IMG/VR virus record: IMGVR_UViG_3300024287_000138
Span: 1-27,891 of that record
Direction: 5' to 3' (one strand)
Origin: a virus
Lineage: Duplodnaviria; Caudoviricetes
DNA: 27,891 nucleotides
Shown: in pieces, positions 468 through 27,891 of the stretch
How the letters are laid out: every line of letters begins with the position of its first letter
Position numbering within the stretch: position 1 is the stretch's first letter
Notes under the pieces: generated by a model
Seen by the model: only the letters and a program-made list of their open reading frames with translations
Database searches by the model: none
What the model was told of the DNA's origin: nothing
Position numbers and translations under genes: made by a program

Positions 468-471
468 ACTC

Positions 472-939: not shown

Positions 940-942
940 CTG

Positions 943-1182: not shown

Positions 1183-1186
1183 AGTC

Positions 1187-5679: not shown

Positions 5680-5924
5680 ACCGCCCTCTCTGCGCTCTTT
5701 GCGTTCTTTGCGGTTAAAATCCCTGCCTTCTTCAAGCGAATTATCCGCGCGCTCGCCGCGATCTTCACCGTCAACTGCGTCTCCGGCCAGGTCAGCACGC
5801 GCCTCAGCCAATCGATATCCTCGCTTTTCCTAACCATCTCCTCCCGGTCAGCCACGGTGCAGGTCTGAGCGCCCGGATGGTATGCTTGTGCGCTCTCCAC
5901 CAACCACGGATTTCTCTTCTTCAT
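5676..5924 (-). CDS. Hypothetical protein; C-terminus encoded by a family-A repeat
   Basis: 82 aa; GGAAGGA SD; ends ILTAKNAKSAERAV, the antisense reading of the 9-mer repeat. Confidence 0.6.
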   Translation of the reverse strand: MKKRNPWLVESAQAYHPGAQTCTVADREEMVRKSEDIDWLRRVLTWPETQLTVKIAASARIIRLKKAGILTAKNAKSAERAV

Positions 5925-5996
5925 TCTGGTCCTTCCCGCCCGCTCCTGCGGGCCATTTTTGTTTTGCTATTTGCTATTTGCTATTGGCTATGCCCC

Positions 5997-8333
5997 TCAC
6001 AGCTCGTGCAGCTCCTCAAGCGTCAGCTCCTCTAGCTCCTGTAGCCGCTCACGCTCCGACTCTCCCACGCTCTCACGCTCCCCACGCCCGCCGCCCAGCT
6101 CAGACAAATCCCCCGCCTCCGCCAATATCCTCCGCTCCGTCCTTTCAACCGTTATCCGCCCAGCCTCCCGTTCATCAGCCTTCACCCTCGCCGCCTCGAT
6201 CCTCTCCCCAATTTCCCCTCGCCCCTCGTCCCTCTCACCTCTCACCTCTTCCGTCCGACTCGTCCTACCCGTCTGACTCGTCTGACTTCCCCTCTGCAAA
6301 AACTGCGCCAGGCTTTGGCTCTTACTCACCGCCAACTGTGCATGAAGTTTTTTGCGCGCCGCCTCACGCCCGAGTTCTTCCTCAGAGGCCCCGAGCCTGG
6401 GAATCTCTCGCACACGCTCGGCGACGCACAAAAATTTATCCGGCCGACCCGCCCTCACCGTGTAGATCACCGCGTCCGTGTCCGGGTTCGAATCATTCCA
6501 ATACGCCACCACCCGCCGCCCCCGCCACGTCTCGAGTACAGTCGGGCAATCGTAGCTGTAGGCCTGCTGAAATTTCCCTGTCCCCTGCGTCACCCGCACG
6601 CCGTTCCGCGTCACCTGGCACACCGCGAACGCTGACCGATACATCCACTTGTAAGCGTCCGGCATTTGCGCCAGCGCCGGCTTCTCGCTCGCCCACTTCG
6701 ACCAAGGCGATTGGCCCCGCAAAATCTTCCCGTCATTACGCTCGTTCAACAGACCTTGCATCGCTCCTGCAACGTGCTTGTCGTACTCGTGCAAATGCAG
6801 GAAATGCTCCCTTGGATGCGCCTTGCCCGACCGCACATCAGCCAGGTGTCGCTTCACGAGCTCCGGGCAATCCTTCATCTCCATCCGCCCGCAAAACCCC
6901 CGGCAATTATCCGCCGCATGCTGCAACGGATTGAACGCTCCCTCGATAATCTTCCCGCGCGGCGACCGCGTATGAATCACCTTCACCCCCAGCGACTTCA
7001 ACCCTCCCAACCTGGTCCCATCCTCGATCCCAGTCCTCTGGCCCCGGACCAGGTCCGACTGCCACGTGCCGCCCTCGAGTATCGCCGTCTCGAACAGCCC
7101 AAACGAATCGAACAAGTCCCCGATGAGCCCCCAAACATCATCCCGGTTATATTGCCCCTTCGGCCGTATCACCAACCGGTAGTTGAGGAACGCCATGCTC
7201 GCCACGTCCATCGTCACCAGCAACTGCGGCCGCAACAGCAGGAACCCGTCCTCATTCGGCCACTCCACCCACACATAGACATTGCACGTCATGTCATCCG
7301 CTGTGAACGCCTGCCCGCACCGCAACCCCGCGTAGCTCGATTCCGTGTAAGGCCCGTCCAACTTCATCGCCTTCGGCCCAACCTGAATCAGCTTCACCGT
7401 TGACACCGGCGCCAGCTCCCGCACCGCCGCCCTCACACTCGGCGGCACATAACTTTTGCTCGCATGCTCCCCATGCAACCACGTCGGACGACCCCGCTCG
7501 CTCCCGACCGTCGGATTACCCACCAGCTCCCGATACGCCCGCGCCATGTTCAACCGCCCCTTGATCCCGTACTCGATCGCCCCGGCCGCCGTCCGCAACA
7601 GCTCATCAGCCTCCAGGTCCAGAGCAAACCCCTTCCGCCCGCTCCGGCCCCGTTTTTGTTCCACCAACCCATCCAGCCCGTGCGCGCGATACGCCAGCTC
7701 CCACCGGCGCAGCGCCGACACCGACACCGCAAAAATCGGATGCTTCACCCGGAAATGACGCACCACAAGCTTCAGCGCCATTTCCTTCCCCAGATGCAAA
7801 TTATTCAAAAGCAACTTCACCGCCGCTTCCCTCAACAAAACGTTTTCCCTCTGCTCATCCGAGTGAGCCAGGTCCGCAAACCTCACCGTCAGTCCCTCTG
7901 CCTCTTCCCTCTGCCTCTCCCTCACTGGGCTCTCCACGATCGCCTCGGCGATTCTTCGCGGCGGCTGATATTCCACCCGATTCTCGAACACCCTTCTCGG
8001 CCAACCATCCCGTGCCGCAATCCGATGCACCCGCTTCTTATGCGTCCCCACCGCCCGCGCAATATCCGCCGCCACAAACCAACCCACCCGCTCTGCCTCT
8101 TTCTCTGCCTCTGCCTCAACTAGCTCCAAGAATGCCACTGCCCGACCTGGCTTCGATGACGATTGATCCAAGGCGACTGTCCTATCGCCAGAGACTTCCT
8201 CTGCGGCCTGGACGCGGCCCCTGTCACCTACCGATTCCCCTCGCGGGGCTTCCTGGAGCAAATCATTCCCATCCTGTCTTTGGATGTTGGATGTTGGATG
8301 TTGGACTTTTCGTTCTTCAAGGTTCGGGGCCAT
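5997..8333 (-). CDS. MuA-like DDE-family transposase
   Basis: 778 aa; HTH regions, SVSALRRWELAY...GLDGLVEQKRGRSGR, catalytic-type motifs FTADD, AILEGG, SPRGKIIEGAF; beta-barrel region VTRNGV. Confidence 0.9.
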   Translation of the reverse strand: MAPNLEERKVQHPTSNIQRQDGNDLLQEAPRGESVGDRGRVQAAEEVSGDRTVALDQSSSKPGRAVAFLELVEAEAEKEAERVGWFVAADIARAVGTHKKRVHRIAARDGWPRRVFENRVEYQPPRRIAEAIVESPVRERQREEAEGLTVRFADLAHSDEQRENVLLREAAVKLLLNNLHLGKEMALKLVVRHFRVKHPIFAVSVSALRRWELAYRAHGLDGLVEQKRGRSGRKGFALDLEADELLRTAAGAIEYGIKGRLNMARAYRELVGNPTVGSERGRPTWLHGEHASKSYVPPSVRAAVRELAPVSTVKLIQVGPKAMKLDGPYTESSYAGLRCGQAFTADDMTCNVYVWVEWPNEDGFLLLRPQLLVTMDVASMAFLNYRLVIRPKGQYNRDDVWGLIGDLFDSFGLFETAILEGGTWQSDLVRGQRTGIEDGTRLGGLKSLGVKVIHTRSPRGKIIEGAFNPLQHAADNCRGFCGRMEMKDCPELVKRHLADVRSGKAHPREHFLHLHEYDKHVAGAMQGLLNERNDGKILRGQSPWSKWASEKPALAQMPDAYKWMYRSAFAVCQVTRNGVRVTQGTGKFQQAYSYDCPTVLETWRGRRVVAYWNDSNPDTDAVIYTVRAGRPDKFLCVAERVREIPRLGASEEELGREAARKKLHAQLAVSKSQSLAQFLQRGSQTSQTGRTSRTEEVRGERDEGRGEIGERIEAARVKADEREAGRITVERTERRILAEAGDLSELGGGRGERESVGESERERLQELEELTLEELHEL

Positions 8334-8367
8334 AAAGAGCTTTCGTTGTTAATAGTTAGGGTCCCTT

Positions 8368-8829
8368 CTAAAATCGTTTCCTCAAATTCGCCTCCATCCG
8401 GTCATGCACCGCCCAAGCCTCCCGTTCCCGCTTGAGAGATCCGTCCGATACGTCCGATCGGTCTGACTCGTCCGACTTCCCTTCCCCAAACACCGTCTTC
8501 ACCAACCTCTCCGTCTGTTTTAACTCTCTCCAGGCGCAAGCTTCACAAATCGAATGACTCACCCTCGGCACCCTCTTCCCATTCGAAAACCGGTAAGCAA
8601 TCGGCAACCACGCCCGATGCAACCGCCTCCCGCACCAAGCGCAATCCACATGACACACCAGCCAAAACCAAACCATCCACCCCCAAGCCCTGACCTTCCG
8701 CCGCCAGTCCTCCATAGTGCTTTTGACGACGGAGGATTTGCTATTTTCTATTTGCGATTTGCTATTGGCTATCACCCACGCCGCCAGCAACACCAAAAGC
8801 CCCCAAACCAAAGTCAGCGTCAGCGTCAT
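8368..8829 (-). CDS. Putative membrane-anchored protein with CxxC...CxxC
   Basis: N-terminal hydrophobic helix, CAWC and CEAC motifs; ATGA overlap upstream; contains two in-frame repeats. Confidence 0.6.
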   Translation of the reverse strand: MTLTLTLVWGLLVLLAAWVIANSKSQIENSKSSVVKSTMEDWRRKVRAWGWMVWFWLVCHVDCAWCGRRLHRAWLPIAYRFSNGKRVPRVSHSICEACAWRELKQTERLVKTVFGEGKSDESDRSDVSDGSLKREREAWAVHDRMEANLRKRF

Positions 8830-9452
8830 ACGTCAATCGTCTCCTTCCCCAACTGCGCATCGATCTTCGCCAGCACCGACTTCATTTTCTCGCGCAGCTC
8901 CGTCAATCCCTCCTCCTCGCTCTTACCCTCCGGAAAATTCAGCGTGAAACCCGGCGACCCCAGCCGGTCCAGCACATCCACCGACGCAAACGCCTTCTCG
9001 AAATCCAGCTCAAACTCCAACTGCCCATTCCCAAGCCGCCTTTGCGCGTACTTCACCGCATCATACTCCCCAAACGGCCGCATCTCCCGCAGGTCCCGCA
9101 ACAGCGCGACCAACGGCTTCGGCGACATCATCATTACTTCCTTTGTGGCTACCTCCTCCAGTTTCCCCCCGGCTGTCTGCGGCTCAGCCATCCTGGCCCA
9201 TACCAACGCTGCTTCCGCGAGCTGCATATAAAGCCTCACCGTTCGCTCGCTGATGCGGCCGCCCGACTGCGCCTGGACGAACAGAGACCAGTCCCCATTC
9301 GGGCAGCTCTCACGCGCTCTGATGAAAAAGAATCCGGCTCGCATAACGTGTTCTCGCGCCTTCCGCCAGGCCGTCTTGAACAGTTCAGCTTCCTGCAGTC
9401 CGGATTCGAACCACTTCTGAGCAGAAGTCCGCGCGGGTCTCAATTGATTCAT
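8826..9452 (-). CDS. DUF3102-like phage protein
   Basis: AGFFFIRARESCPNGDWSLFV...ISERTVRLYMQLA matches the DUF3102 pattern seen in Mu-like early operons. Confidence 0.75.
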   Translation of the reverse strand: MNQLRPARTSAQKWFESGLQEAELFKTAWRKAREHVMRAGFFFIRARESCPNGDWSLFVQAQSGGRISERTVRLYMQLAEAALVWARMAEPQTAGGKLEEVATKEVMMMSPKPLVALLRDLREMRPFGEYDAVKYAQRRLGNGQLEFELDFEKAFASVDVLDRLGSPGFTLNFPEGKSEEEGLTELREKMKSVLAKIDAQLGKETIDV

Positions 9453-9461
9453 TGATTGCTT

Positions 9462-9683
9462 TCATGATTGGTCCCCAGCTCCGTTCTTTGGCTGTTTTCC
9501 TGCCGGGCTTTGCGCCTCCACCAATACCAGGCCCGATTTCTCCCATTCCGGCAATTGCCTCTCCACCGCCTGCCGGATGATCTCCGACGCCCCGATCCCG
9601 AACCGCTTTGATGCGCGCAAAATCCGCTTCCTCGTGTTTATCGGAAAGCGGACCGGCACCGGCATCGACAGCCTTCTATTCAT
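9462..9683 (-). CDS. Ribbon-helix-helix regulator (Ner/Cro-equivalent position)
   Basis: PVPVRFP-helix-GIGASEIIRQAVERQL is a CopG/Arc-like pattern; first gene of the early operon. Confidence 0.75.
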   Translation of the reverse strand: MNRRLSMPVPVRFPINTRKRILRASKRFGIGASEIIRQAVERQLPEWEKSGLVLVEAQSPAGKQPKNGAGDQS

Positions 9684-9779
9684 TGCGCTACCACGTATAT
9701 CAAAGCACTACGATGAACGTCAACAGAAAAAGTGAAATATATTTGCTTTTTTTGCTCTACCCTGCTATACAATCGCAAC
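9684..9779. promoter_or_regulatory. Divergent promoter/operator region (genetic switch)
   Basis: AT-rich; leftward TTGACG (9723-9718)-N18-TATACG (9699-9694); rightward TTGCTT (9743) and TACAAT (9768); GCNCTAC repeats at 9685, 9705, 9754. Confidence 0.65.
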
Positions 9780-10028
9780 ATGAGCTTAAATGCGGCTGTG
9801 GCAGTCAGGTTTGAGACTGACACCGCGACCCGTCTGGAAGCCGTGAGCAGGAGGTTCCGAATGCCCTCGGCTGTCCTTATTCGGATGGCGGTGGACAAGT
9901 TCCTGGACGAAGTTGAAAAGAGCGGGAAGCTGGAAGTGCCGGCGGCCTACCCAGGCCCAAAACCGGTAATTGTAGAACTCAACGAACGCGCGCGGAAGCG
10001 CCGCGCCTTGCTCCCCAAAAATATCTAA
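9780..10028 (+). CDS. Ribbon-helix-helix regulator (probable prophage repressor)
   Basis: Start reassigned to ATG 9780; AVAVRFE-helix-MPSAVLIRMAVDKFL; paralogous to 9462-9683. Confidence 0.72.
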   Translation: MSLNAAVAVRFETDTATRLEAVSRRFRMPSAVLIRMAVDKFLDEVEKSGKLEVPAAYPGPKPVIVELNERARKRRALLPKNI

Positions 10029-10142
10029 TTATACCTCGTTTCCGTTAGGCCGAAAATCCTCGTAACTACCTATCACTATAACAAACGACCGGCAATCCGT
10101 TGCCGATTTGAACTGCCTAAATGCGAGAAAGAATGAGTCAAA

Positions 10143-10424
10143 ATGGGATACAAACCACTCATAGATAGGCTCGCCAATTATCCGCGCCCTCTGCCAACCC
10201 ACCTGGTCCGACAGCTCGCCCGCGAGCAAATGGAAACCTTCAAGGCGGCCGGTATCAAGTTTGTCGAGTACCTCGGCGCAAATAACGACGAAGACGACTG
10301 CGAAGCCATCAAAGCCATGAAGAACGTAGCCGTGGAAATCCACTTCGCGCCCCTCCTGCCGCTACCTGGCTGTGACCGAAAATACTGCAAATGTATCCTC
10401 GGCGCATCCGAACGACAAAGATGA
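10143..10424 (+). CDS. Small protein resembling a stand-alone MuF/gp7 C-terminal metal-binding domain
   Basis: GIKFVEYLGANNDEDDC...PLLPLPGCDRKYCKC; ATGA overlap with the next gene. Confidence 0.55.
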   Translation: MGYKPLIDRLANYPRPLPTHLVRQLAREQMETFKAAGIKFVEYLGANNDEDDCEAIKAMKNVAVEIHFAPLLPLPGCDRKYCKCILGASERQR

Positions 10425-10882
10425 TTCAAGAAATCGCCTGGCTCCGCACCGAATGCCCAGCCTGCCGGCAGCCCATCGAAGTCGCCTCCGACACCGCTGC
10501 CCGCGGCATTGAATGTCCCTCCTGCGGCACCGGATTCGTTCCCGGCTCCAAGCCCCCCTCCAAGTTCAAACGCTTCCTCCGCGAATTCGACAAACGAATC
10601 ATTGCCCCCGAACAGCCCTCCAAGCCGATCCCCGTCAAATCCGAAGCCGATCGGATTGCAGGAACTGCAAATGCCGTCTCGTTTTTCGCCAAGCTCTGCT
10701 TCGCCGGCGTTGGCCTTTGTCTCATCCTGATAGCCTACGCTGGAGCCGACCCAAACTCCGGTCTTTCTGTGGGAGCCATTTTGTGGTTTGCCGCATCGCT
10801 ACTGACCTTCGGCCTGGTCCTCCTCTTTCTGTCCCAGCTAATCCACATCCGCGCCCTGCTCGAACGCCTCTCCGAAAAATAA
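10421..10882 (+). CDS. Zinc-ribbon membrane protein (2 TM)
   Basis: Start ATG 10421; CPAC...CPSC followed by two hydrophobic helices; co-oriented with the repressor (lysogenic cargo). Confidence 0.8.
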   Translation: MIQEIAWLRTECPACRQPIEVASDTAARGIECPSCGTGFVPGSKPPSKFKRFLREFDKRIIAPEQPSKPIPVKSEADRIAGTANAVSFFAKLCFAGVGLCLILIAYAGADPNSGLSVGAILWFAASLLTFGLVLLFLSQLIHIRALLERLSEK

Positions 10883-10883
10883 T

Positions 10884-11099
10884 CTCTGCGCTCTTCGCGT
10901 CTCTGCGGTTAATCCCACGCCTGACCTGAATAGCTTCAGCGACGGAGTGTCCGACTCCCCGTTCGACCCGGTCCGACTTCGTCCGACTTCGTCCGATTCT
11001 TACTTCTCACCTCGCCCCTCGCCCCTCTCACCTGTCACCTCCGTCCCCGCCCCGTCCGACCCGCTCTGCGTTCTCTGCGTTCTTTGCGGTTAAAATCCC
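10884..11099 (+). repeat. Intergenic cluster of several repeat families
   Basis: Family A at 10884-10912 and 11064-11093; GTCCGACTTC x3 at 10971-10999; CTCACCT/CGCCCCT 7-mers at 11006-11040. Confidence 0.9.
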
Positions 11100-11399
11100 G
11101 TTGAACATCTCTTGGCCATCTTCTCCTTCTTTTTCTCTAATTTAGACTCATAACTTTCCGCTGACCGTTCGCAGCGGTCAGCCTCAGCCCGCAATTCAGC
11201 GGGCCTGGTCTGATAATGCACTCAACCAAATGCGGGACCGACCGACAGCAGCGCGCCAGGCCAAAGCCGTCACTTATAGCTCCTCCAGCATCGTAGGCTT
11301 TGTCCTCTTCAATCCTAACGATGCACTCCGCCAGTCCCTTCCAACCCAACGCCGCTGTCCCGGTCGCGCTTGTAACTCTCAACTCCACAACTCTCAACC

Positions 11400-12077
11400 A
11401 TGAAAAACACTCTCCGTTCTCTGCGTTCTGCACCCCGAACACTTTCGGGGCTGCGGTTAATTCTCATCCTCTCTGCGCTCTTTGCGTTCTCTGCGGTTAT
11501 TCCCGTCTTCTCCCAGACCAGCACCAACCTCCTCTCCGACGGCCTGCCCGTCATGCCGCCCGACTTCCCCACCAACCAACTCCAGCAAATCGCCGGCGCC
11601 TCCGTCGTCGTCTCCAGCGCGCTCAACATGCTCCCCGCCTGGAACAAAAACCTTCCCTACTTCACCAACGCCCACGAGCTCGAACTCGAAATCTCGCCCA
11701 CCTGGAAATCCGCCACCGCCTCCGGCAGCACACCCTACGTCAGCTTCGGCGCTAATTACTTCATCACTCCAACCCTCGGCATCGGCGCCGACCTCATCAC
11801 ATTCGGCAACGGCACCGGAACCAGCGACCTCGACAGCGGCCACCTATTCGGCATCTTCAGAAAATCCGTCGGCAATATCGCCGGCCATCTGATGCTCGGC
11901 GGCGGCCGCGACAACAACCAGAACCTCTGGGTCGCCGAAGCCGGCGGCGGCATCGAATACCGCTACTCGACCGGCATCGGCATCCTCGTCGATACCCGCT
12001 ACGTCTACTATCCCTCGAGGACCGCGATCTCCGACCACGAATTCCTCACCCGCGTCGGCATCACCCTCCACTTCTAA
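11400..12077 (+). CDS. Exported outer-membrane beta-barrel protein
   Basis: Signal peptide ending PVFS-Q; about 8 amphipathic strands (VSFGANYF, LGIGAD, GGGIEYRY, LVDTRYVY); C-terminal beta-signal VGITLHF. Confidence 0.78.
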   Translation: MKNTLRSLRSAPRTLSGLRLILILSALFAFSAVIPVFSQTSTNLLSDGLPVMPPDFPTNQLQQIAGASVVVSSALNMLPAWNKNLPYFTNAHELELEISPTWKSATASGSTPYVSFGANYFITPTLGIGADLITFGNGTGTSDLDSGHLFGIFRKSVGNIAGHLMLGGGRDNNQNLWVAEAGGGIEYRYSTGIGILVDTRYVYYPSRTAISDHEFLTRVGITLHF

Positions 12078-12111
12078 CGATTCAACCATTTAACGATTTA
12101 ACCCTTTTAAC

Positions 12112-12729
12112 GTGCGCAGCGTACTGATTTTCGTCCCCGGCATCCTGACCTTCCCCGGTTCCGGCAAGAACTGGTCCGGACGCGCCGTCTCCTGGACCCA
12201 CAACCATTCCGGTGCTTGCGCCGAAAAGGTCGAATACTTCTGCGGCCCCATCGGACGCGCCTTCGGCCAGGTCGAACGCACCCGCAAACTCTTTCACACC
12301 ATCGACCAATACCGCGACGACTGGAAAATCACCCTCGTCGGCCACAGCAACGGCGCCGCCGTCATCCTCGGCCTCCTCGACTATCCCTGCCCGATCATCC
12401 ACTCCCTGCACCTCGTTTGCGGCGCCTGCGAATCATCCTTTCACGCCAACGGCCTCAACGCTCGTCTCCAGCACAACGCCATCGGCCACGTCTCCGTCTA
12501 TGTCGCCGCCAAAGACCTCGCCCTCGCCCTGGCCCACTCCTGGGCCGGCCGCCTCCTCGGCTACGGCACACTCGGCCTCCACGGCCCGCGCCACGTCTCC
12601 CCCATGGTTGCCAGCCGCGTCAAGACCATCACCTGGCCCGAGTTCGGCCATTCCGACTGCTGGTCCGACGACTTCCTCGACGAAACCCTCCAAAACTTTC
12701 TCCCACCCATCCGCCACTTCTCCGCATGA
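12112..12729 (+). CDS. Alpha/beta hydrolase
   Basis: IFVPGI oxyanion strand, GHSNG nucleophile elbow, KDLAL Asp, and GHSD His. Confidence 0.85.
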   Translation: MRSVLIFVPGILTFPGSGKNWSGRAVSWTHNHSGACAEKVEYFCGPIGRAFGQVERTRKLFHTIDQYRDDWKITLVGHSNGAAVILGLLDYPCPIIHSLHLVCGACESSFHANGLNARLQHNAIGHVSVYVAAKDLALALAHSWAGRLLGYGTLGLHGPRHVSPMVASRVKTITWPEFGHSDCWSDDFLDETLQNFLPPIRHFSA

Positions 12730-14246
12730 AACGCTATCTCCTATTGGCCATTCCTATCGCCTGTCTGGCCCTCTGCCTCGGCTTCGGAAACCTTCCTCCG
12801 TCTCCGCTGCCTCATCCGATTCTTCTTTCCCCAAAATCCCAGGAACAAAGCCTCAGCCTCGGCTCCCCCATGGCTCGCCCCTCGGCCCTCTCACCTCTCA
12901 CCTCTGCCCCTCCTCCCTCTCCCCTCGCCCTTCCCTCGGGCTTCCGCTTCACCGATAGCTTTTGCGCCGGCGGCCGTCTCAATCTCGCCTGGCAACAAGG
13001 CGACCCTCCCTTCCAGCTCCAATGCGCAAGCATCTTCTCCCCAAACAACTGGACAAACATCGGCGGCCCCATCCTCAACCGCTACGCCGCCATCTCCTTG
13101 ACTGGCAACGGCGGCCTCTCCGGTAACGCCTTCTTCCGCGTTCAATCCTCCGTCAGCCCCATTCTAGGAATCGGAACCTTCAATTCGCCGGAGAAGATCA
13201 TGGTCATGACCAATGGCACCTACGTATATCCGTACTCGGACGGCAGTTTCGCCCGGCTCGGAGTATGGACAAGCCTCACCGATTTCGTCGCCATCACCGT
13301 TCCCGGCTTCAGTGCCTTCCGCAATCCGACCTGCACGGTAGTGGGCGACAGGGTCATCATCGCCGACTCGACGATCAACGGCACCAACCGGCTCGCTGAA
13401 TACCAGCTCTCGGGCACTAACCTGACCACGGTGACGAATTTCGGCTTCGGCACGGCCAGCGGAACCGCCGCCTGCACGGTGAATGGTACCGCATTTGTCT
13501 TCTCGTTTCGGCCGAGCACCACCAATCATGTCTTTTTCACCTCCGTGATGCGCCAGGCCAACGGGACTTACAATGTCTCGGCGGAGTTCGACGAGGACTC
13601 GAGCACCGGGCAGACGCTATCCACGTTGATGACTGCCGTCGGCTACCACGGCTTGGCCTGGCTGTTCAATGTCGAGGATGGCGGCCAGTGCGTGAGCGTG
13701 AGCCAGTTCACGACCACCAATACGCTGCTCTTTTTCAAGCCGAATTTCATTTCCAGCGCCTCGGATCTCGGCCCTTCGGGAGAACTTCCCATCCCGACCT
13801 CGACCGTGGACACTTCAAACGACCGAATTCTCCTGGGATACGCAAGTTACCCCGAAGATATGACTTGCTGCGTAGGAGAAGGAGACTTCGACTGCAGTAT
13901 CGCCGGGCGCTCGTCCATCGTAAGCCTAACGGCAACCAATGATTTGAACGTTCAGAATAACGTCACTCTGTTGGGGACAACACCCTGGTGGGGATGGCAC
14001 TCCGATTATCCGCTCGTGAGCATGTTTCCACGATCGAGCAAAGTCGATACGGTAACGGAGAATGTGGTCATCGCCGGTTGCGATCGGAGCCAGATCGAGT
14101 TTCAGTTGGGCACATTTCAAGGAGGCATCTGCACCGGTGGCGCCGTGGTAGTTCAAGGCGCCAACGTGGACGTCGCCGGCTTTTCGTCCGACGGCTGGAT
14201 CGTCTATCGCTCAGCCGATCTCAAATACCGCCTCGCCAAATTCTGA
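12726..14246 (+). CDS. Large secreted beta-rich protein
   Basis: Start ATG 12726 (ATGA overlap); signal MKRYLLLAIPIACLALCLGFG; Pro/Ser linker; Thr/Ser/Gly/Asn-rich beta-strand body. Confidence 0.75.
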   Translation: MKRYLLLAIPIACLALCLGFGNLPPSPLPHPILLSPKSQEQSLSLGSPMARPSALSPLTSAPPPSPLALPSGFRFTDSFCAGGRLNLAWQQGDPPFQLQCASIFSPNNWTNIGGPILNRYAAISLTGNGGLSGNAFFRVQSSVSPILGIGTFNSPEKIMVMTNGTYVYPYSDGSFARLGVWTSLTDFVAITVPGFSAFRNPTCTVVGDRVIIADSTINGTNRLAEYQLSGTNLTTVTNFGFGTASGTAACTVNGTAFVFSFRPSTTNHVFFTSVMRQANGTYNVSAEFDEDSSTGQTLSTLMTAVGYHGLAWLFNVEDGGQCVSVSQFTTTNTLLFFKPNFISSASDLGPSGELPIPTSTVDTSNDRILLGYASYPEDMTCCVGEGDFDCSIAGRSSIVSLTATNDLNVQNNVTLLGTTPWWGWHSDYPLVSMFPRSSKVDTVTENVVIAGCDRSQIEFQLGTFQGGICTGGAVVVQGANVDVAGFSSDGWIVYRSADLKYRLAKF

Positions 14247-14248
14247 CC

Positions 14249-20712: not shown

Positions 20713-20762
20713 TCCTCTCTCTGCGTTCTCTGCGTTCTCTGCGGTTAATTCCTTTCTTGTGA
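20709..20762 (+). other. Repeat-built linker mini-ORF (MILSLRSLRSLRLIPFL)
   Basis: ATGA overlap with the portal stop and GTGA overlap with the next ORF; family-A repeat inside. Confidence 0.6.
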
Positions 20763-20947
20763 ACCAGCGCCGCCTCAAACAAAAACTTCCGCGCTCCTGG
20801 ACAATTTCCCGCTCCGGCCGCGATCTCCACGTCACCACCGACCAGGGCGCCGTCTTCCGCGTCAACAAAGACGCCCGCTGGACCGAAGAAGACCTCGCCC
20901 TTTACCTCAAATCCAAAATCCCCATCCAAATCCATCGCCATGATTAA
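20759..20947 (+). CDS. Small hypothetical protein
   Basis: GTG start, 62 aa, C-ending codon usage like other late genes; overlaps the protease start by 8 nt. Confidence 0.6.
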   Translation: MNQRRLKQKLPRSWTISRSGRDLHVTTDQGAVFRVNKDARWTEEDLALYLKSKIPIQIHRHD

Positions 20948-21617
20948 GCGCACCCTCCATCCAGAAGTCCGCATCCTAGACGAAAAACTCGGCCTCGCCT
21001 CCTATATCGCCTCCGACGAATCCATCGACTCCTACAAAGAAGTCATCCGCGCCGATGGCTGGCGCTTCGATCACTTCCAGAAAAATTCCCCCTTCGTCGA
21101 TTCCCACAACTACGGCACCATCGCCCGGCTCGTCGGCAAAGTCGTCGATTTCCAGGTCAAAGGCCGCGAGCTTCACGAAACCGTCCAATGGGCCATCGAC
21201 GTCCCCGAAAACGATCTCGCCCGCATCGGCTGGTCCATGACCAGGGGCGGCTACCTCAAAGCCGTCTCCGTCGGCTTCTTCCCCGAAAAACTCGTCTCTG
21301 TCTATGACCGCGACCTCGGCCCCTATCGCGACGAGCTCAAAGCTCTCCACTACGAAGAAGGCAAATCCGCCCCGCGCGTCGTCTATCAGCAGCAACAGCA
21401 AATCGAGCTCTCCGCCTGCATCGTCGGCGCCAACCCCAATGCCCTCGCCAAATCCTACAAACTCGGCCTCTTGACAGATGCCGACCTTGATTTACTATCG
21501 TCCCAACAGCGTGAATACGCTTCTTCGGCTGTAGATGCCGCTGTCGCCGAAGAAGCCCGTCAGCGGACTCGCCTCTCGTTTCTCGATAGTTTCGCTCGCG
21601 CACTCAAAGCGCTTTAG
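20940..21617 (+). CDS. HK97-type prohead protease
   Basis: ASDESIDSYKEVI, FVDSH (His), GYLKAVSVGF (Ser), and IELSACIVGANPNA. Confidence 0.9.
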   Translation: MIKRTLHPEVRILDEKLGLASYIASDESIDSYKEVIRADGWRFDHFQKNSPFVDSHNYGTIARLVGKVVDFQVKGRELHETVQWAIDVPENDLARIGWSMTRGGYLKAVSVGFFPEKLVSVYDRDLGPYRDELKALHYEEGKSAPRVVYQQQQQIELSACIVGANPNALAKSYKLGLLTDADLDLLSSQQREYASSAVDAAVAEEARQRTRLSFLDSFARALKAL

Positions 21618-21663
21618 TTCAGTTCCCAACCATCAACTCAAACTCATTCTCTCCATCAACTCT

Positions 21664-23019
21664 ATGAATCCACTTCCTGAAACCGACTTCCAGCAAACCG
21701 TCCTCCGCGGCGTCGAGTCCCTCCAGACCGAACAAAAAGCCCACAAGACCCGCATCGACGAAGTCTATGCCAACTTCGATCGCACCGATAAAGAGGTCAA
21801 AAAAGTCACCGACGAACTCACCGTCGCCAAAAACAAAATGAACGAGACCTGGGAGGCGACCATGAAACGGATCGAAAAGGTCCAGCAAGCCGTCGCCCGC
21901 AATGTCCGCTCCTCCTGGCGTGACCCCATCGAACAGCTTCTCGATAGCAACGAGGAAACTCGTTTCTACCTCAATGCTCTTGCTCGTTATTGCAATGGCC
22001 TGAAGGACGGAACCGTCAATCGGTTATCCGGCGAAATGCGAAAAGTCGTCGAGGAAGGCACCGCCTCCTTCAAAGCCCTCACCGGCGTCGATTCCTCCCT
22101 CGGACAGGCCACCGTTCCTACCCAGACCTTCAACGAGATTTATGATCTCTTGCTCGAGTACGGCGATTGGTCCGGCCTCGGCGTTCAGCGCGTCGGCGCT
22201 CGCACCACCGTCCTGCCCGTCGGAACCGCCCGCCCGCAATTCTACTGGATCGGCTCGGGCACCGGTGGCACTGGCGAAGGTTCGGCCATTACCGAAGGCG
22301 CTTTCACCGGCTCCTCTGTCAGCCTCATCATCCAAACCCTGGCCGCCTATCTTCTGGTCGCGCGCGAGCTCCTGGCAGATTCCACCGTTGACCTGGCTCC
22401 CTACATCCTCCGCGAGATGGTCCAGGCCGTCGCCTTCGGTCTCGATACCGCCGCTTTCATCAGCGCCGGCGTTGCCAACCAGACCGATGCCGGCTACTAC
22501 GGCATCTTCAAGGCCGACTCCGTCAACGCCAACCTCGCCGCGGGCGCGGCCGCCGGCGGCACCAAAGTCTCCAAGCTCCTCCTGGACGACTTCGTCAACT
22601 GCCTCACCACCGTTTCGCCCATCGTCCTCAAGCGCAAACCCAAGTGGTGGATGCATCCCCAGGTCCTCGCCAGCATCGCCCTCATCCGCGACACTGTCGG
22701 TCGCCCCATCTTCCAGACCTGGCAGGAAGTCCCCAGCGGCACTCTAGCCTCCATCCTCGGCTATCCCGTCGTTTCCACCGCCGTCGCGCCCACTGCCGCC
22801 CTCACCACCATCAGCTCTCCGGCCGCCGTGTTCGGCGACCCCATGGGCCAGGCCGTCGGCATCCGCTCCGACCTCGAGCTCGCCACCTCCGACGACATCA
22901 AGTTCGCCGAAAACATGCGCGCCTATCGCACTCTCATCCGCGCCGGCGTCAAACTCAAAACCGCCACCGCCAGCATAACCCTCAAACCCTTCGCCGTCCT
23001 CAAAACCGCTGCCGCCTAA
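21664..23019 (+). CDS. HK97-fold major capsid protein with N-terminal coiled-coil (delta) domain
   Basis: Start ATG 21664; coiled-coil N-terminus, ATVPTQTFNEI, RELLADS, WWMHP, RDTVGRPIF, ILGYPVV, VFGD. Confidence 0.93.
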   Translation: MNPLPETDFQQTVLRGVESLQTEQKAHKTRIDEVYANFDRTDKEVKKVTDELTVAKNKMNETWEATMKRIEKVQQAVARNVRSSWRDPIEQLLDSNEETRFYLNALARYCNGLKDGTVNRLSGEMRKVVEEGTASFKALTGVDSSLGQATVPTQTFNEIYDLLLEYGDWSGLGVQRVGARTTVLPVGTARPQFYWIGSGTGGTGEGSAITEGAFTGSSVSLIIQTLAAYLLVARELLADSTVDLAPYILREMVQAVAFGLDTAAFISAGVANQTDAGYYGIFKADSVNANLAAGAAAGGTKVSKLLLDDFVNCLTTVSPIVLKRKPKWWMHPQVLASIALIRDTVGRPIFQTWQEVPSGTLASILGYPVVSTAVAPTAALTTISSPAAVFGDPMGQAVGIRSDLELATSDDIKFAENMRAYRTLIRAGVKLKTATASITLKPFAVLKTAAA

Positions 23020-23028
23020 CCCTAAATT

Positions 23029-23075
23029 CCTCTCCCCGCCTTCTCCCATCCCATGGGAGATGGCCGGGGTTGAGG
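23029..23075 (+). terminator. GC-rich hairpin after the capsid gene (terminator/RNA stabiliser or REP-like palindrome)
   Basis: TCTCCCAT-ccc-ATGGGAGA core with an extended outer stem; no clear U-tract. Confidence 0.4.
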
Positions 23076-23117
23076 GCTTCAACTATCAACTCATCAAACT
23101 ATCAACTCTCAACACCA

Positions 23118-23558
23118 ATGAAAAAACTCCTCCTCTCTGCGTTCTGCGCGTTCTCTGCGGTTATTCCCGCTTACTCCCAACTCTACGACACCTCCCAGCT
23201 CGTCAACAACATCGCCATCGCCTCCGGTGGCTCTTCCAACGTCGCTGCCGTCGTCGGCTGCACCCGCTACGACGAGTTCGCCCTCCAGATCAACTTCAAG
23301 CTCATGGCCTCCGGCACCGACCCCGTCACCTTCACCTGGTGTACTTCCAATGACGGCGTCACCTACTGCACCACCGGTTCAGGCCAGGGCACATTCACCG
23401 TCGCCGCTAATGGCACCACGCCCGTCGTTTTCACCACCAACATGGTCATGAACTCCGTCGGCTACTTCCAAATCAGTTCCATCGCCGGCAGTACCAACGC
23501 CATCACCACCAACCTCACCGTCAACGCCTTCTTCAAACCCAGAAAGCGCGGTCCATAA
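23118..23558 (+). CDS. Beta-rich protein with apparent signal peptide in head-decoration position
   Basis: Start ATG 23118; MKKLLLSAFCAFSAVIPAYS-Q; beta-sandwich-like body with a TSNDGVTY motif. Confidence 0.75.
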   Translation: MKKLLLSAFCAFSAVIPAYSQLYDTSQLVNNIAIASGGSSNVAAVVGCTRYDEFALQINFKLMASGTDPVTFTWCTSNDGVTYCTTGSGQGTFTVAANGTTPVVFTTNMVMNSVGYFQISSIAGSTNAITTNLTVNAFFKPRKRGP

Positions 23559-23569
23559 TCTGAGGAACC

Positions 23570-23612
23570 AGGTCCGGCGGCGGTTTTCCTCCTTTTTCCC
23601 GCCGCCGGGCCT
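23570..23612 (+). terminator. 14-bp hairpin with pyrimidine loop
   Basis: AGGTCCGGCGGCGG / CCGCCGCCGGGCCT immediately after the 23558 stop. Confidence 0.4.
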
Positions 23613-23659
23613 TCTCCTCAACTATCAACTCTCCAACACCATCAACCATCAACTAACCA

Positions 23660-23872
23660 ATGAGCCGCACCTTCAAAGACGCCAAAGACCGCATGGTCCA
23701 TTCCGACGCTACCGAAACCCGCTCCTCGTCCCTCGCCCCTCGTCCCTCTCGCCTCCGTAACTGGGGCTACTGCCAGACCTGCGGCGGCTTCATCCGCCGA
23801 CTCGGCAAATCCTGGGAGCATGATGGCCAGCGCCCGAACCATCCCGCGAAGCCGCTACCTTTCGAAGAATAA
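23660..23872 (+). CDS. Small hypothetical protein (CxxC...H...H)
   Basis: 70 aa; ATG follows a CAACTAT/CAACCAT repeat; in-frame 7-mer repeat at 23724-23752. Confidence 0.5.
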   Translation: MSRTFKDAKDRMVHSDATETRSSSLAPRPSRLRNWGYCQTCGGFIRRLGKSWEHDGQRPNHPAKPLPFEE

Positions 23873-23944
23873 CTCCCACCTCGCAACCTCGATGAACTCT
23901 GTTTCCCATTTCAGGTTTCAGCTTTCAGGTTTCAGCTTTTCCCC

Positions 23945-24604
23945 ATGATCGCCGGCCTCACCAACCTCGACACCCTCAAAAAAGCTATCCTGCCCTCCTC
24001 CATGGCGGCAGAGACCAAATTCGATCTCATGCTCCAGGTCGTCGGCCTCGGCGTCGCCGGCCTCTTCGATTCTTTCTGCAATCGCCGTCTCGCCTGGCAG
24101 GCCGCCGATAACATCGTCTTCTCTGGCGATCGCCCGCATTACTACCTCCCGCGCTTTCCCATCTCCGGCATCACCAAGATCGAAATGCGCTATTTCCAGA
24201 CCGACTCCTGGACCGAGATCACCGGTCAACCCATCTCCGTCAATTACGAAAACGGCCTCGTCCATTTCGGCTACACCCTCGGCCGCAACCCACTCGTCGT
24301 CCGCGCCACCTGGGACGGCGGCTACTGGTTCGAGACCCTCGAACCCGATGACGCCGCCTATCCAAGCACTTCGCCCGCCGTCACCGATCCCCTGGCCCTC
24401 GCCAATGGCGGCTCCGTTGCTCCGCTCCCCGGCGTCCTACGCGCCGCCTTCCTTCTTCAATGCGAAGCCGTCTGGGCCGCCCGCGACAAACTCGGTCTCG
24501 GTCTCACCGACAAACCCGGCGAACAATCCGGTATCACCAAACTCGATCTGTCGCCCCTCATCAAAACCATGCTCCAGCCCTTCATCCGCTATCAGCTCTC
24601 ATGA
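23945..24604 (+). CDS. Head-tail connector/adaptor (gp6-like)
   Basis: LTNLDTLK...FDSFCNRRL, YLPRFPI, VRATWDGGY, LPGVLRAAFL, IKTMLQPF; position after the capsid genes. Confidence 0.8.
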   Translation: MIAGLTNLDTLKKAILPSSMAAETKFDLMLQVVGLGVAGLFDSFCNRRLAWQAADNIVFSGDRPHYYLPRFPISGITKIEMRYFQTDSWTEITGQPISVNYENGLVHFGYTLGRNPLVVRATWDGGYWFETLEPDDAAYPSTSPAVTDPLALANGGSVAPLPGVLRAAFLLQCEAVWAARDKLGLGLTDKPGEQSGITKLDLSPLIKTMLQPFIRYQLS

Positions 24605-24697
24605 AGTCACCCCTTAGAGGCCCCGAGCCGTGTCAGACTGGTCCTACTGGTCTGACACGTCCGAGCCTTCAGCTTTCAGATTTCAGATTTTCCTAGC

Positions 24698-25210
24698 ATG
24701 CAGCTCAAAATCCAACTAACTCCCGAAGCCCAGGCGACTCTCCGCGCCGTCCAACGTCTGCCCCAGACCGCCCTCGTCGAAATCGCCAAAGCCATGGACC
24801 GCCAGAACGTCGCCACCGTCTTCCACATCCAGCGCGAATATCTCAGCTTTCCAAAGGACCAACCTCCGGTCGAAATGGGCCTGCGCCACGTCTCCGGCCG
24901 ATTGAAGAACTCTATCCACCCCAGCAAAGCCGAAGTCTCCGGCCAGAGCGTCACCGGCGCCATCGGTTCCAACGTCGTTTACGCCGCCATCCACGAATTC
25001 GGCGGCCACACCTCTCCCCACGACATCTATCCCAAAAACAAAGTCGCCCTCAAATTCCAGCTCGGCGAACGCACTGTCTTCGCCAAAGTCGTCCATCATC
25101 CCGGCTCCGAGATCCCCGCCCGCGCTCCCATCCAGCACGGCATCCAGGACCGCCTCGACAACTACTCCAAGGCCATCTCCGACGCCATCATCAACGCCCT
25201 CAACCAATGA
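24698..25210 (+). CDS. Virion morphogenesis/neck protein (Mu gpG / HK97 gp10-like)
   Basis: SGRLKNSI, GSNVVYAAIHEFGG, VHHPG.EIPARAPI motifs. Confidence 0.85.
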   Translation: MQLKIQLTPEAQATLRAVQRLPQTALVEIAKAMDRQNVATVFHIQREYLSFPKDQPPVEMGLRHVSGRLKNSIHPSKAEVSGQSVTGAIGSNVVYAAIHEFGGHTSPHDIYPKNKVALKFQLGERTVFAKVVHHPGSEIPARAPIQHGIQDRLDNYSKAISDAIINALNQ

Positions 25211-25262
25211 CTGACTATCTTTCCGATTTCAGCTTTCAGGTTTCAGGTTTCAGCTTTTCCCC

Positions 25263-26075
25263 ATGACCAGCTCCCTCGAAATCATCGACCGTCTCCCCTA
25301 CGAGCTCGCCGCGCGCCTCGAGGCCGATCCTTTCTTCATCGACATCCCCGTCGTCGTCTTCGAGGAAGGCAACCTCAAAGCCGAGATGGACCGTAAGCAA
25401 GCCCTGGTCACGACCAAGACCGGCCGCCGCGGCGTCGCCGTCATCGTCCTCCAGGTCGTCGCCGACGACCTCTATCCCGACGTCATGTTCAATCCCTTGC
25501 TATTGCACCCCGCCTTCCAGGTCGTCGAACTCGTCGAACTCAATCGCGACCCCAACGGCACCGGCAAATCCGCCCGCAAAGTCGCCCGCCGGATCCGCGA
25601 CCTCCTCAAAATCTTCGGCATGTATGGCGTCGCCAAAACCATGATTGCCGACGAACCCTGCATCGAACCCGTCAAACTCGCCGACGAACTCGGCAAATCC
25701 GTCAAAGCCTATCAGGTCAATTTCCGCTGCCTCGAGGACCACGACGAGCTCCTCAACCAATGCCTCCGCCCCACCTTCCAGGTCACCGGCGCCACCCTCG
25801 AGCTCCTGTCCGAAACTGCGGACGCCGAGATCTATTACACCATCGAAGGCGACCCCGCCGAATGCATCGGCTCCAAGACCTATCCCTCGAAGCAAAACCC
25901 TCTCGCCCATCTCTACAACACCGCGCTCCCGATCCCCGACGCCGGCTTCATCATCCGCGCTTGCGCCTATCCCGCCGGCACAACCAACGCCGGCAACGGC
26001 GGCGAACCCATCGATCCCGACTTGCTAAGCACCACCGCCTCCTGGGTCACCCGCGCCGAAATCTTCCCCTCATGA
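25263..26075 (+). CDS. Putative tail-completion protein with C-terminal Fn3-associated/chitobiase-type Ig-like domain
   Basis: Position between the neck and tail-tube genes; C-terminal PTF...LELLSETADAEIYYTIEG.P...Y...IRACAY pattern. Confidence 0.6.
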   Translation: MTSSLEIIDRLPYELAARLEADPFFIDIPVVVFEEGNLKAEMDRKQALVTTKTGRRGVAVIVLQVVADDLYPDVMFNPLLLHPAFQVVELVELNRDPNGTGKSARKVARRIRDLLKIFGMYGVAKTMIADEPCIEPVKLADELGKSVKAYQVNFRCLEDHDELLNQCLRPTFQVTGATLELLSETADAEIYYTIEGDPAECIGSKTYPSKQNPLAHLYNTALPIPDAGFIIRACAYPAGTTNAGNGGEPIDPDLLSTTASWVTRAEIFPS

Positions 26076-26278
26076 GAACAACCGCTCTTCCTCCGTCTCT
26101 GCGTTCTCTGCGTTCTGCACCCCGAAGACTTTCGGGGCTGCGGTTAATTCCTGCTTTTTCTGCTCCGTCTCTGTGCCTCCGTGCCTCTGTGGTTAAAACT
26201 CCGTCTCTGCGTTCTCTGCGTTCTCTGCGGTTAATTTCTGGTCCCGCTCTCAACTCTCAACCATCAACCATCAACTAA
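26072..26278 (+). other. Repeat-built linker mini-ORF (68 aa)
   Basis: ATGA overlap upstream; three family-A-type arrays plus CTCTCAA/CCATCAA 7-mers; stop 3 nt before the next ATG. Confidence 0.6.
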
Positions 26279-26281
26279 TCT

Positions 26282-27235
26282 ATGGCTAACATCGTCCTTC
26301 CCATCATCATCCAGGGCCCGGCCTTCATCTCCATCGCCGGCACCGTCCTCTACACCGAGCGCGACATCTCCGTCGAACAAAACACCGACGCCTGGAACCC
26401 CGAGTCCGCCTACGGCCCCCTGGGCCAGCGCCACAAATCCCGCAAGGACGTCCTCATCTTCAAACCCGTCGGCATGATAACCGCCGGCCTGCTCAATTTC
26501 TTCTACGCCGCCCACCTCACGCCCACCTCCATCGGCACATCGATCTTCACCGGCTCAGGCGTCGTCTTTGTCTCCTCGATCTCCGAAAACAAAACCTACA
26601 CCTGGCGCCGCGGCGGCATCTCCAAACCTCCCGGCCTGGCCGCCAAACCCACCTCTACTCTCTTCGGCTCCATGTCTGTCACCTGCATCGGTGCGCCGGC
26701 CGTCCAACCCCTCGACGCGCACTTCTGGCTCGCCGCCGAAGCTGCCGCCACCGCCGACACCACCTTCGACCAGACCAAAATCATCTCCGACATCTACAGC
26801 GCCGCCCTGGGCTCCCGCGGCGCTCCCTACAACGCCATGGGCGGCATCGAAGGCTTCGATATCGACTTCGGTTTCGAAACCGTGGACGTCCCCGCCTCCG
26901 ACCTCGGCTTTGCCGACATCATCCTCCGCGGCCTGTCCATCACAGCCAGCTTCCGTCCCTCCAACCTCACCGAGACCCAGGTCAACACCCTCGTCCGCCT
27001 CCAGGACACCACCGCCGTCCTCCCTGGCCAACCCTACGCCAAAGAACTCGAAGACCTCGTCATCACCGGCACCCAAATCGGCTGGGTCTTCACCCTCAAA
27101 GCCGTCGGCGCAAAACGCGCCGGCAAGATCTACCAGGTCGGTGTCCATCGCCATAACAACATCGAATTCGTCAACCAACGCACCTGGACCGCCGGCGTCC
27201 CCAATGCCCTCTTCGCCTACACCGCCCCCTCATGA
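26282..27235 (+). CDS. Putative major tail (tube) protein
   Basis: 317 aa, beta-rich; IIQGPAFI N-terminus; position after the tail-completion gene. Assignment is positional. Confidence 0.6.
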   Translation: MANIVLPIIIQGPAFISIAGTVLYTERDISVEQNTDAWNPESAYGPLGQRHKSRKDVLIFKPVGMITAGLLNFFYAAHLTPTSIGTSIFTGSGVVFVSSISENKTYTWRRGGISKPPGLAAKPTSTLFGSMSVTCIGAPAVQPLDAHFWLAAEAAATADTTFDQTKIISDIYSAALGSRGAPYNAMGGIEGFDIDFGFETVDVPASDLGFADIILRGLSITASFRPSNLTETQVNTLVRLQDTTAVLPGQPYAKELEDLVITGTQIGWVFTLKAVGAKRAGKIYQVGVHRHNNIEFVNQRTWTAGVPNALFAYTAPS

Positions 27236-27313
27236 ATTCTTTTCTTACTCTATCTCTGCCTCTGCCTCTGCCTCTGATTTCAGCTTTCAGCTTTCAGCTT
27301 TCAGCTTTTCTAT

Positions 27314-27715
27314 ATGTCTGACCGCGGCACATGGAAAATCCTCATCGGCGGCGCCACCCTCCTCGACTACGCCAACGTCGCCAACCCACGCGACAACGAC
27401 GGCGGCCCCGTCATCCAGCAGGAAGCACTCTTCCGCGCCCCCTCCCTCACCTTCCTCCAGCGCGCAAACTTCGGTCTGCACCTCGTCTTCGACATCACCA
27501 TCCTGCAGGCCAACAACGCCGACGCCATGGCTTTCTTCCTCACCGCGCCCCAGACCTGGTCCGGCGTCAACGACGTCGCCCTCACCCACAAAGATCACAC
27601 CGGCGCCGAGACCACAAAAAACCTCACCGCCGCCTCCGTCCGACTCAAATGCTCGCCCCCGATCGGCGTCACCAACCTCGCCACCCTAACCATCACCGGC
27701 GGCCTTATCGCCTGA
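27314..27715 (+). CDS. Hypothetical tail-region protein
   Basis: 133 aa, beta-rich, late-gene codon usage. Confidence 0.7.
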   Translation: MSDRGTWKILIGGATLLDYANVANPRDNDGGPVIQQEALFRAPSLTFLQRANFGLHLVFDITILQANNADAMAFFLTAPQTWSGVNDVALTHKDHTGAETTKNLTAASVRLKCSPPIGVTNLATLTITGGLIA

Positions 27716-27891
27716 TTACCCAACCTATGAAACCCCCTTGCAATCCCCCTTCAACTCCGCCTCCGTCTCTGCGTTCTTTGCGTTCTCTGCGGTTAAATCT
27801 TTTCCGTTCCCCATCCGTTCAATCCGTGCAATCCGTGGTTAAAAAGTCCCTTCTCTGCGTTCTCTGCGTTCTCTGCGGTTATTCCTCTAGA

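Follow-up and report, generated by a model that had tools for sequence, protein, structure and literature searches.

Several kinds of short dispersed repeat bear on the arrays described here (statements taken from papers cited by PMC number refer to the accessible portions of their texts). Heptamer repeats of the GGGAATC and GGGGA(C/T)T type occur in Xanthomonas and Nostoc and form inverted pairs in Xanthomonas, for which the accessible text reports no leading- or lagging-strand preference (PMC4692102). Arrays of TAACTGA precede start codons in Beggiatoaceae, Cyanobacteria and Bacteroidetes, and the mechanism of their spread is described as not evident (PMC4679880). REP, BIME and REPIN repeats carry a GTAG tag and go with RAYT proteins (PMC3733652, PMC6006769), while IS200/IS605 elements provide a precedent for fork-oriented insertion (PMC5027513, PMC6006769). 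We analysed the entire 27.9-kb virus record IMGVR_UViG_3300024287_000138 (positions 1..27891; hereafter the window), a partial Mu-like soil phage that carries 47 short tandem arrays, all on one strand. We place the arrays among the dispersed short repeats, as a variant; the pattern extends across hosts, and this phage, with its strong skew, displays it with great clarity.

With the described heptamers the arrays share short 7-base units (families B, C, E and F are heptameric), a mostly intergenic position, an end at a start codon in some cases (ATG, in families E and F) and an unexplained origin. They differ in comprising ten families with units of 6-10 bases, and in being lone and aligned with strand skew (47:0) where the heptamer pairs have no strand preference (PMC4692102). 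Our literature search found nothing on cyanobacterial STRR, a name used in an earlier sequence-only reading of the window. As in IS200/IS605, it appears to be the DNA strand, not transcription, that determines orientation; unlike those elements, the arrays, or arms as we shall call them, are not self-folding and consist of degenerate tandem units spanning 25-40 bases. Neither an HUH transposase among the 40 open reading frames (ORFs) of the window that were scanned nor subterminal hairpins were found. REP, BIME and REPIN repeats are likewise small, dispersed and intergenic, occur singly or as inverted doublets, and bracket a small gene thought to spread them. The arms, however, have no GTAG tag or self-hairpin (for an A arm and its flanks, folding does not exceed that of shuffles, z 0.56 and 0.07), and the genes that they bracket are of the GxxExxY and four-helix-bundle types; no RAYT was found among the same 40 ORFs, to which that search was confined. 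The GxxExxY and four-helix cassettes of other genomes have the same arm families and left-right grammar, but the phage and skewed hosts carry nearly all arms lone and one-way. Chi and KOPS are fixed short words polarised by replichore. The arms resemble them in long-range strand polarity, but belong to many unrelated families with fast turnover at single junctions. No account of the cassettes or of skew-aligned arms was found in a literature search that left most subscription papers and supplements outside.

Lone right-hand arms of hairpin cassettes

A de novo periodicity scan of the window returned 18 period-7 and 17 period-9 arrays, compared with means of 0.4 (maximum 2) and 0.23 (maximum 1) in 30 local Markov simulations, and Tandem Repeats Finder recovered the same arrays. 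Family patterns matched 47 arrays on the plus strand and none on the minus strand, in ten unit families (A, 17; A2, 1; B, 4; C, 7; D, 7; E, 3; F, 4; TTGGATG, 1; CTCTGC, 2; TAACGATT, 1), where fewer than one array per family and strand is expected by chance (50 simulations). The patterns were derived from plus-strand arrays; the unbiased checks are the de novo count, in which 31 plus-strand arrays were pyrimidine-rich and one purine-rich, and a reverse-complement test, in which none of the 49 curated arrays had a reverse complement clearly above control within 300 bp. Unit number is mostly three for 9-mers and three to six for 7-mers, and the terminal unit is often fixed (GGTTAA/T; TTGGCTA in three of four B arrays; TTTT in four of four F arrays). 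The sequence-only reading had reported about 50 loci in at least six unrelated families, with near-constant unit number and a terminal anchor, in the same orientation in both operons; all of this was borne out, including the early-operon positions 5688, 5963, 6217, 6251, 8441 and 8737, and the copies are neither equal on the two strands nor at the level of chance. Contigs from the runs of other soil studies cross several arrays (17088-17579, 19632-20225, 20427-20785, 23696-24029 and 5983-6670) without any difference; thus the arrays are not assembly artefacts. Three A arms contain, at one and the same position, a 20-base mini-hairpin (11432-11452, 15868-15888 and 26117-26137) that folds at z -4.35 and is a smaller element nested in the arm.

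Comparison with bacterial genomes showed that the arrays are lone right-hand arms of small hairpin cassettes, which in bacteria bracket GxxExxY-type (PF13366) and four-helix-bundle (PF05635) genes. The nearest terminase relatives of the phage in genome contigs are mostly from Verrucomicrobiota records, several of them subdivision 3 or Limisphaerales. The host genomes (G handles) were drawn from the order of genome G001, reached via prophage loci; this order is probably the same lineage as those relatives. Of 301 host-order genomes, 50 contain a 21-base family-A pattern, often as an inverted pair 30-600 bases apart, and one 30-base arm recurs in an estimated 700 metagenome stretches. The left arm was purine-rich in 23 of 27 inverted pairs. 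Pair data identify the plus-strand form as the right arm for families A, B, C, E, F, TTGGATG and the 8-mer: units of B, C, F and TTGGATG have their partner upstream, and E is the 3' arm of the four-helix gene. The side of the D arm is uncertain, because its pattern scan was confounded by other repeats that contain GTCCGAC. That B and F might be left arms was ruled out, as scans showed both to be right arms, and a "downstream partner" of F in two cases turned out to be a neighbouring element.

Arms of 8-10 base units adjoin all 15 GxxExxY genes shown (19 hits), about ten of them in the order left arm, gene, right arm, and heptamer arms stand on both sides of about 19 of the 25 four-helix genes shown (31 hits). 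These counts, made by eye, agree with the link to both gene types that the sequence-only reading had made. Whereas 95 of 181 arms in flat, that is unskewed, DNA form inverted left-right pairs, this holds for 0 of 49 in the phage, and no partner or remnant was detected within 300 bases of any of these 49 arrays.

Polarity follows strand skew in phages and hosts

A feature overlooked in the sequence-only reading is the C-richness of the entire plus strand, present in 27 of 27 one-kb windows (overall skew -0.28). By PHROGs and Pfam scans of the 40 ORFs the phage is a Mu-like transposable phage, with the transposase and its AAA partner on the minus strand and a Mu gp27-type small terminase, large terminase, portal-F fusion, capsid and neck genes on the plus strand. 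Fourfold sites are 73-88% C in six of seven plus-strand genes and 61-76% G in four of six minus-strand genes, the rest being weaker. Since silent sites are thus C-rich on the plus strand in both operons, the strand bias, like the arrays, is independent of transcription. The 506-amino-acid gene at 12726-14246 has a weaker silent-site skew than its neighbours (53% C), as expected of a recent acquisition.

When relatives were oriented by their terminase, G-skewed phages had reversed arms, and C-skewed ones had arms as in this phage. The survey covered 13 phage records, five of them read in part; nine whole or near-whole records have an absolute skew of at least 0.16. In these nine, the C-rich strand carries 134 right arms and the opposite strand 2, regardless of the strand of the late genes (per record 34:0, 52:0, 7:0, 8:0, 1:0, 18:1, 2:0, 6:1 and 7:0). 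The ratio of 52:0 is that of a 46-kb virus record (L142 / G308, skew +0.31), a second phage with multi-family one-way arrays. Three flat records gave 14:12, 3:9 and 6:13.

The same relation was found in hosts. Among 67 usable loci from the collection scans, the skew of the flanks on the arm strand was below -0.12 at 14 (3 paired), above +0.12 at none, and in between at 53 (28 paired). With a loose partner test that missed at least one pair (L350), lone arms lay on the C-rich strand in 37 of 39 cases in genome G177 (41 of 63 matches examined), 38 of 41 in G275 (42 of 43) and 18 of 20 in G097 (30 of 66). In G177 and G275 together this amounts to 75 of 80, with flanking genes about equally ++ and --; in G097, pairs occupy flat regions and lone arms skewed regions. 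Silent sites near host arms have the same bias in genes of either strand. For lone arms the ratio of C-rich to G-rich flanks is 37:4 in B, 21:5 in F, 22:0 in C and 19:0 in TTGGATG, and pairing, seen for 95 of 181 arms in flat DNA, is down to 5 of 108 where the flanks are strongly C-skewed; many of the arms counted here belong to G177, G275 and related genomes and do not represent independent observations. These results indicate that polarity follows strand skew, whatever the direction of genes, in phages and hosts alike. The sequence-only reading stands in so far as it saw a templated, strand-specific pattern that is linked to GxxExxY and four-helix genes and ignores transcription, but the system is host-wide and not the phage's own: the polarity is the same in skewed hosts and other skewed phages, and is missing in unskewed DNA, where about half of the arms are paired.

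REP-like GTAG units occur in the same host junctions and are polarised as well. GTAG-type palindromes and a CCCTCTCC-type element stand singly, point one way and lie on the C-rich strand in the skewed DNA of G177, G275 and kin (L413-L434, L393-L397), with ratios of 18:0, 16:0, 14:1, 7:0, 9:1, 9:0 and 32:0; many of the units counted belong to these related genomes and are not independent. Some GTAG types are doublets in flat DNA. The GTAG units are G-rich and correspond to the left unit of their doublets, so that REP-type doublets and arms keep opposite sides on the C-rich strand. With one-way, G-rich left units, neither composition matching nor one common side for every hairpin can hold; the result points to a direction that is element-specific relative to a shared strand cue. 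They also bear on point-mutational erosion, by which strand-biased mutation would wear down whichever arm mismatches the composition of its strand. Most right arms are indeed pyrimidine-rich like their strand, with its C-rich silent sites, and one GTAG element in G275 has a possible worn partner. In the surviving arms, however, G residues are kept and every letter agrees with the consensus, the 49 arrays have no remnants beside them, and the G-rich TTGGATG arms (19:0) and GTAG units (18:0) are also on the C-rich strand; these results contradict erosion, which we consider most improbable.

Filled sites, empty sites and phage genes

The closest relative at the DNA level among the fetched loci has only ~70-75% identity; with no close DNA relative, empty and filled sites were compared via proteins and junction lengths. 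Loop 1 of the terminase large subunit (TerL) has 11 codons in 32 of 35 alignment rows and 25 in the phage, and loop 2 has 19 codons in 33 of 44 rows and 29 in the phage, some rows being copies of one phage; both additions are D arms. In a G-skewed phage (L007), loop 2 has 27 codons and contains a C-family arm in the reverse direction. Four late junctions that are filled here are tight in relatives, with gaps estimated from tblastn: at most 9 nucleotides in 13 of 17 rows against 93 in the phage, at most 23 in 7 of 7 against 52, 3, 3 and 45 against 78, and, in one phage, 5 against 174. Judged from these alignments, the arrays are insertions into sites empty in relatives. Among the matches listed, orthologous junctions in a head-tail cluster of six related hosts carry differing arm families, all on the C-rich strand. 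This phage head-tail cluster (G275:C3:688001-706000, L397; syntenic in G177, G214, G131, G299, G068 and G307 at 76-93% identity) and its kin are strongly skewed and dense in arms; a domesticated or gene-transfer-agent-like element is possible.

The empty sites speak against local polymerase slippage from resident sequence, as the sequence-only reading had argued from unit number and anchor. Arrays of short tandem units are what slippage would leave, but the units are unrelated to the orthologous empty sites, the same units recur in host-order genomes and other contigs (the 30-base arm and 21-base pattern counted above), and long matching contigs of other runs, at low coverage, show no change in copy number; slippage is contradicted and scarcely credible here. 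The claim of templated insertion or copying holds for the insertion of pre-existing families, whether these came in as single arms or were left so by loss of a partner. The presence and absence expected among orthologs was likewise found between relatives and not at strain level.

We examined 16 junctions: nine, filled late ones, have an ATG at or near the upstream stop, five lack one and two have no defined next start. All nine bridge ORFs stop within -11 to +3 of the start of the next gene, a range taken from the data themselves, compared with 0 of 18 for the other two frames; from this frame result we infer selection for insertions that preserve translational coupling. A Shine-Dalgarno-like word was found at 1 of 20 plus-strand starts versus 10 of 17 minus-strand starts, some of these starts being approximate. 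The arrays might, then, be sites of translational or transcriptional control in the phage, held in orientation by selection: E and F arms end at start codons, plus-strand starts mostly have no such word, bridge ORFs span the junctions, and TAACTGA repeats have been proposed as translational signals (PMC4679880). Yet one DNA orientation in opposed operons means opposite RNA sequences, and most relatives have no array at the same site or have the reverse arm. A control function is very unlikely to explain the arrays and, as the cause of their polarity, is already contradicted.

The A arms at 11400-11500, 14249-14301 and 23119-23164 form the hydrophobic stretch of predicted signal peptides, and no orthologs of genes 11400 and 23119 were found in the six relatives shown.

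Table 1. Arms, bridge ORFs and reference genes in the window, in order of position.
Feature	Position	Strand	Remark
A arm	5686..5717	+	on - strand reads as left arm, within C-terminus of ORF 5676-5924
B arm	5963..5991	+	directly beyond transposase stop
Mu-type transposase	5997..8333	-	context
C arm and D arm	6216..6287	+	in transposase C-terminal tail
TTGGATG arm	8280..8307	+	in transposase N-terminus; right arm despite G-richness
D arm	8441..8477	+	within ORF 8368-8829 (-)
B arm	8736..8772	+	within ORF 8368-8829 (-)
A arm	10884..10912	+	
D, C and A arms, stacked	10971..11093	+	
E arm	11374..11400	+	ends on ATG of gene 11400
Two A arms	11419..11500	+	predicted signal peptide of gene 11400; first contains 20-base mini-hairpin
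8-mer arm (TAACGATT type)	12075..12112	+	intergenic
C arms	12880..12930	+	N-terminal part of gene 12726-14246
A arm	14271..14301	+	N-terminus of ORF 14249
C arm	14632..14665	+	precedes gene 14670
C arm	15496..15526	+	C-terminus of receiver-domain gene
Bridge ORF, 62 amino acids	15788..15976	+	B, A, A arms; gene 15534 to terminase small subunit (terS); junction 5 bp in L001
Bridge ORF, 20 amino acids	16538..16600	+	A arm 16552-16581; overlaps terS stop and terL start
TerL	16597..17994	+	context; orthology marker
D arm, in frame	17127..17169	+	TerL loop 1
D arm, in frame	17265..17305	+	TerL loop 2
Bridge ORF, 145 amino acids	17991..18428	+	A (18015), B (18147), C (18375) arms; terL to portal
D arm, in frame	19834..19872	+	portal gene
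A arm, in frame	20061..20090	+	portal gene
Bridge ORF, 17 amino acids	20709..20762	+	A arm 20718-20748
Degenerate E arm	21628..21662	+	precedes capsid ATG; curated by eye
E arm and A arm	23079..23164	+	E before ATG of gene 23119; A is its predicted signal peptide
E arm	23619..23655	+	precedes gene 23660
C arm	23724..23753	+	within ORF 23660-23872
Bridge ORF, 18 amino acids	23892..23948	+	F arm 23909-23939
Bridge ORF, 31 amino acids	24601..24696	+	D and F arms; junction at most 9 nucleotides in 13/17 relatives
Bridge ORF, 19 amino acids	25207..25266	+	F arm 25227-25257
Bridge ORF, 68 amino acids	26072..26278	+	A, 8-mer, A, E arms
Bridge ORF, 29 amino acids	27232..27321	+	CTCTGC and F arms; junction 3 bp in L001
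A, ATCCGTGCA-type and A arms, stacked	27766..27882	+	contig end

Three further small repeated or hairpin elements lie at 8708-8736, 14542-14575 and 23025-23075; the first two are matched by many foreign contigs, and the third folds at z -5.2. At 1-60, the contig begins a few bases before TGT, followed by two similar 18-base words, and a contig of the source run begins at base 5 of this region. This region might represent a left end of the Mu type, its flanks being mixed; if it truly is one, the extreme skew of an active transposable phage would itself be puzzling.

Proposed insertion at the fork and its rivals

We give about an even chance to the reading that single arms are inserted by the machinery of the host, with the replication fork dictating their direction. 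Lone arms would in this way come to fill gene junctions and protein loops on the C-rich strand of the phage only. The G-rich strand would be the leading strand, the purine-rich arm would be added to the nascent strand beginning at its anchor, a slip back would sometimes duplicate 25-41 bases, and the cassette proteins would act in trans. Selection would then retain insertions that are in frame or that form a mini-ORF from the stop of one gene to the start of the next. Birth as a single arm is favoured by the absence of remnants, by the arm-only in-frame insertions in TerL and by flush duplications of 25-41 bases. Such duplications flank 5 of 277 lone arms but none of 139 paired ones; the score was passed by 13 lone arms, five of them flush, and by 13 of 2080 controls. 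The G-rich strand is the one that encodes ribosomal protein L2 in 5 of 5 genomes, and of 234 genes located near arms it carries 143.

The fall in pairing from flat to strongly C-skewed DNA fits the loss of arms equally well. Entire hairpins might have been inserted and one arm then cleanly deleted, depending on the replication strand, in DNA long kept in one orientation. The separation of pairs and lone arms between flat and skewed regions of G097 agrees with such a history, as do the lagging-strand bias of palindrome deletion in E. coli, summarised in PMC1851657, and the many lone arms whose inner side has a pyrimidine tract resembling the spacer half of a pair. The slippage geometry in the accessible text of that paper, with the donor repeat nearer the centre, would however, as we interpret it, remove most of both arms instead of sparing one intact; no remnants accompany the 49 arrays, the in-frame TerL insertions would require two frame-keeping events, and GTAG doublets lose the opposite side. 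We regard deletion as an unlikely origin of the lone arms, though one to be taken seriously.

Several observations weigh against fork-directed insertion. Flanking duplications are rare overall and absent at all 35 array clusters of the phage; about half of the arms in flat DNA are paired (95/181), which needs a second step beyond single insertion; and no strain-level presence or absence was seen, the same phage in other soil runs, none of them listed as RNA, offering no usable variation. Among draft genomes with many arms, G177 yields a single, broken GxxExxY gene and no hit to PF05635, and G275 yields no GxxExxY hit. One phage record with a skew of -0.11 (G313) has its single arm on the other strand, and GTAG palindromes keep their left unit on the C-rich strand, so that no one rule covers all small elements. 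The 60 arms of the closed, weakly skewed chromosome G001 show no replichore pattern, its lone arms fitting neither two replichores nor local skew, and in G001:C1:343496-822138 many pairs, spaced ~19 bases apart with anchors facing, run right-then-left against the usual order. Finally, 20 short samples at dnaA in G275 and G177, where skew is weak and patchy, revealed no clean switch of skew, so the assignment of leading and lagging strands is putative, and skew varies gene by gene from -0.3 to +0.9, with sign changes at the 100-kb scale on some contigs.

The last two points would suit a local one-strand process apart from the chromosomal fork, such as patchy repair or conversion tracts, which would produce both skew and arm direction and of which the phage would be one domain. 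Against such domains, 18 of 19 samples taken without regard to arms agree in the sign of skew along contig C1 of G275 (1.19 Mb), and 11 of 11 arms there are on a single strand, so that orientation is tied to skew over this whole length. Moreover, skew keeps its sign across arms (-0.34 upstream, -0.31 downstream), and the G-rich L2-coding strands do not fit. A local process of this kind seems improbable to us.

Like the sequence-only reading, our scans of the 40 ORFs found no dedicated enzyme in the window. By position alone, the cassette proteins are natural candidates, intact copies being scarce in two skewed hosts. The small ORF at 1187-1762 on the minus strand is PolX-like, with palm and thumb domains only; it was rejected as the enzyme, since it matched 3 of 26 phage records, the majority of the 26 being fragments, and none of those rich in arrays. 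The suggested co-occurrence with reverse transcriptase genes was not upheld: none was found among the 40 ORFs, and PF00078 occurs in two of five arm-rich draft genomes, a link too weak for copying of the diversity-generating retroelement kind.

A further, tentative reading is a so far undescribed repeat-writing system in many bacteria, in which the small cassette proteins (GxxExxY nuclease, four-helix bundle) would guide host polymerase, at the fork, in extending nascent DNA ends by a short templated arm; hairpins would result from two-ended events, and lone leading-strand arms from one-ended ones. We think this doubtful enough to be offered as a conjecture. Whatever their origin, arms reshape essential phage genes: they place in-frame loops in the terminase and the portal, and make up predicted signal peptides as well as mini-ORFs that would relay ribosomes. 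Annotators should be warned that such short ORFs and N-termini are repeat-made. In the accessible texts, the origin of bacterial arrays of 7-10 base repeats is still open (PMC4692102, PMC4679880); the arrays are now tied to measurable strand skew, with the predictions that orientation flips at origin and terminus and that lone arms either arise at empty sites or descend from pairs. Were the repeat-writing system real, arms would record fork direction in chromosomes and phages, and the long-unexplained 7-base repeats would be accounted for.

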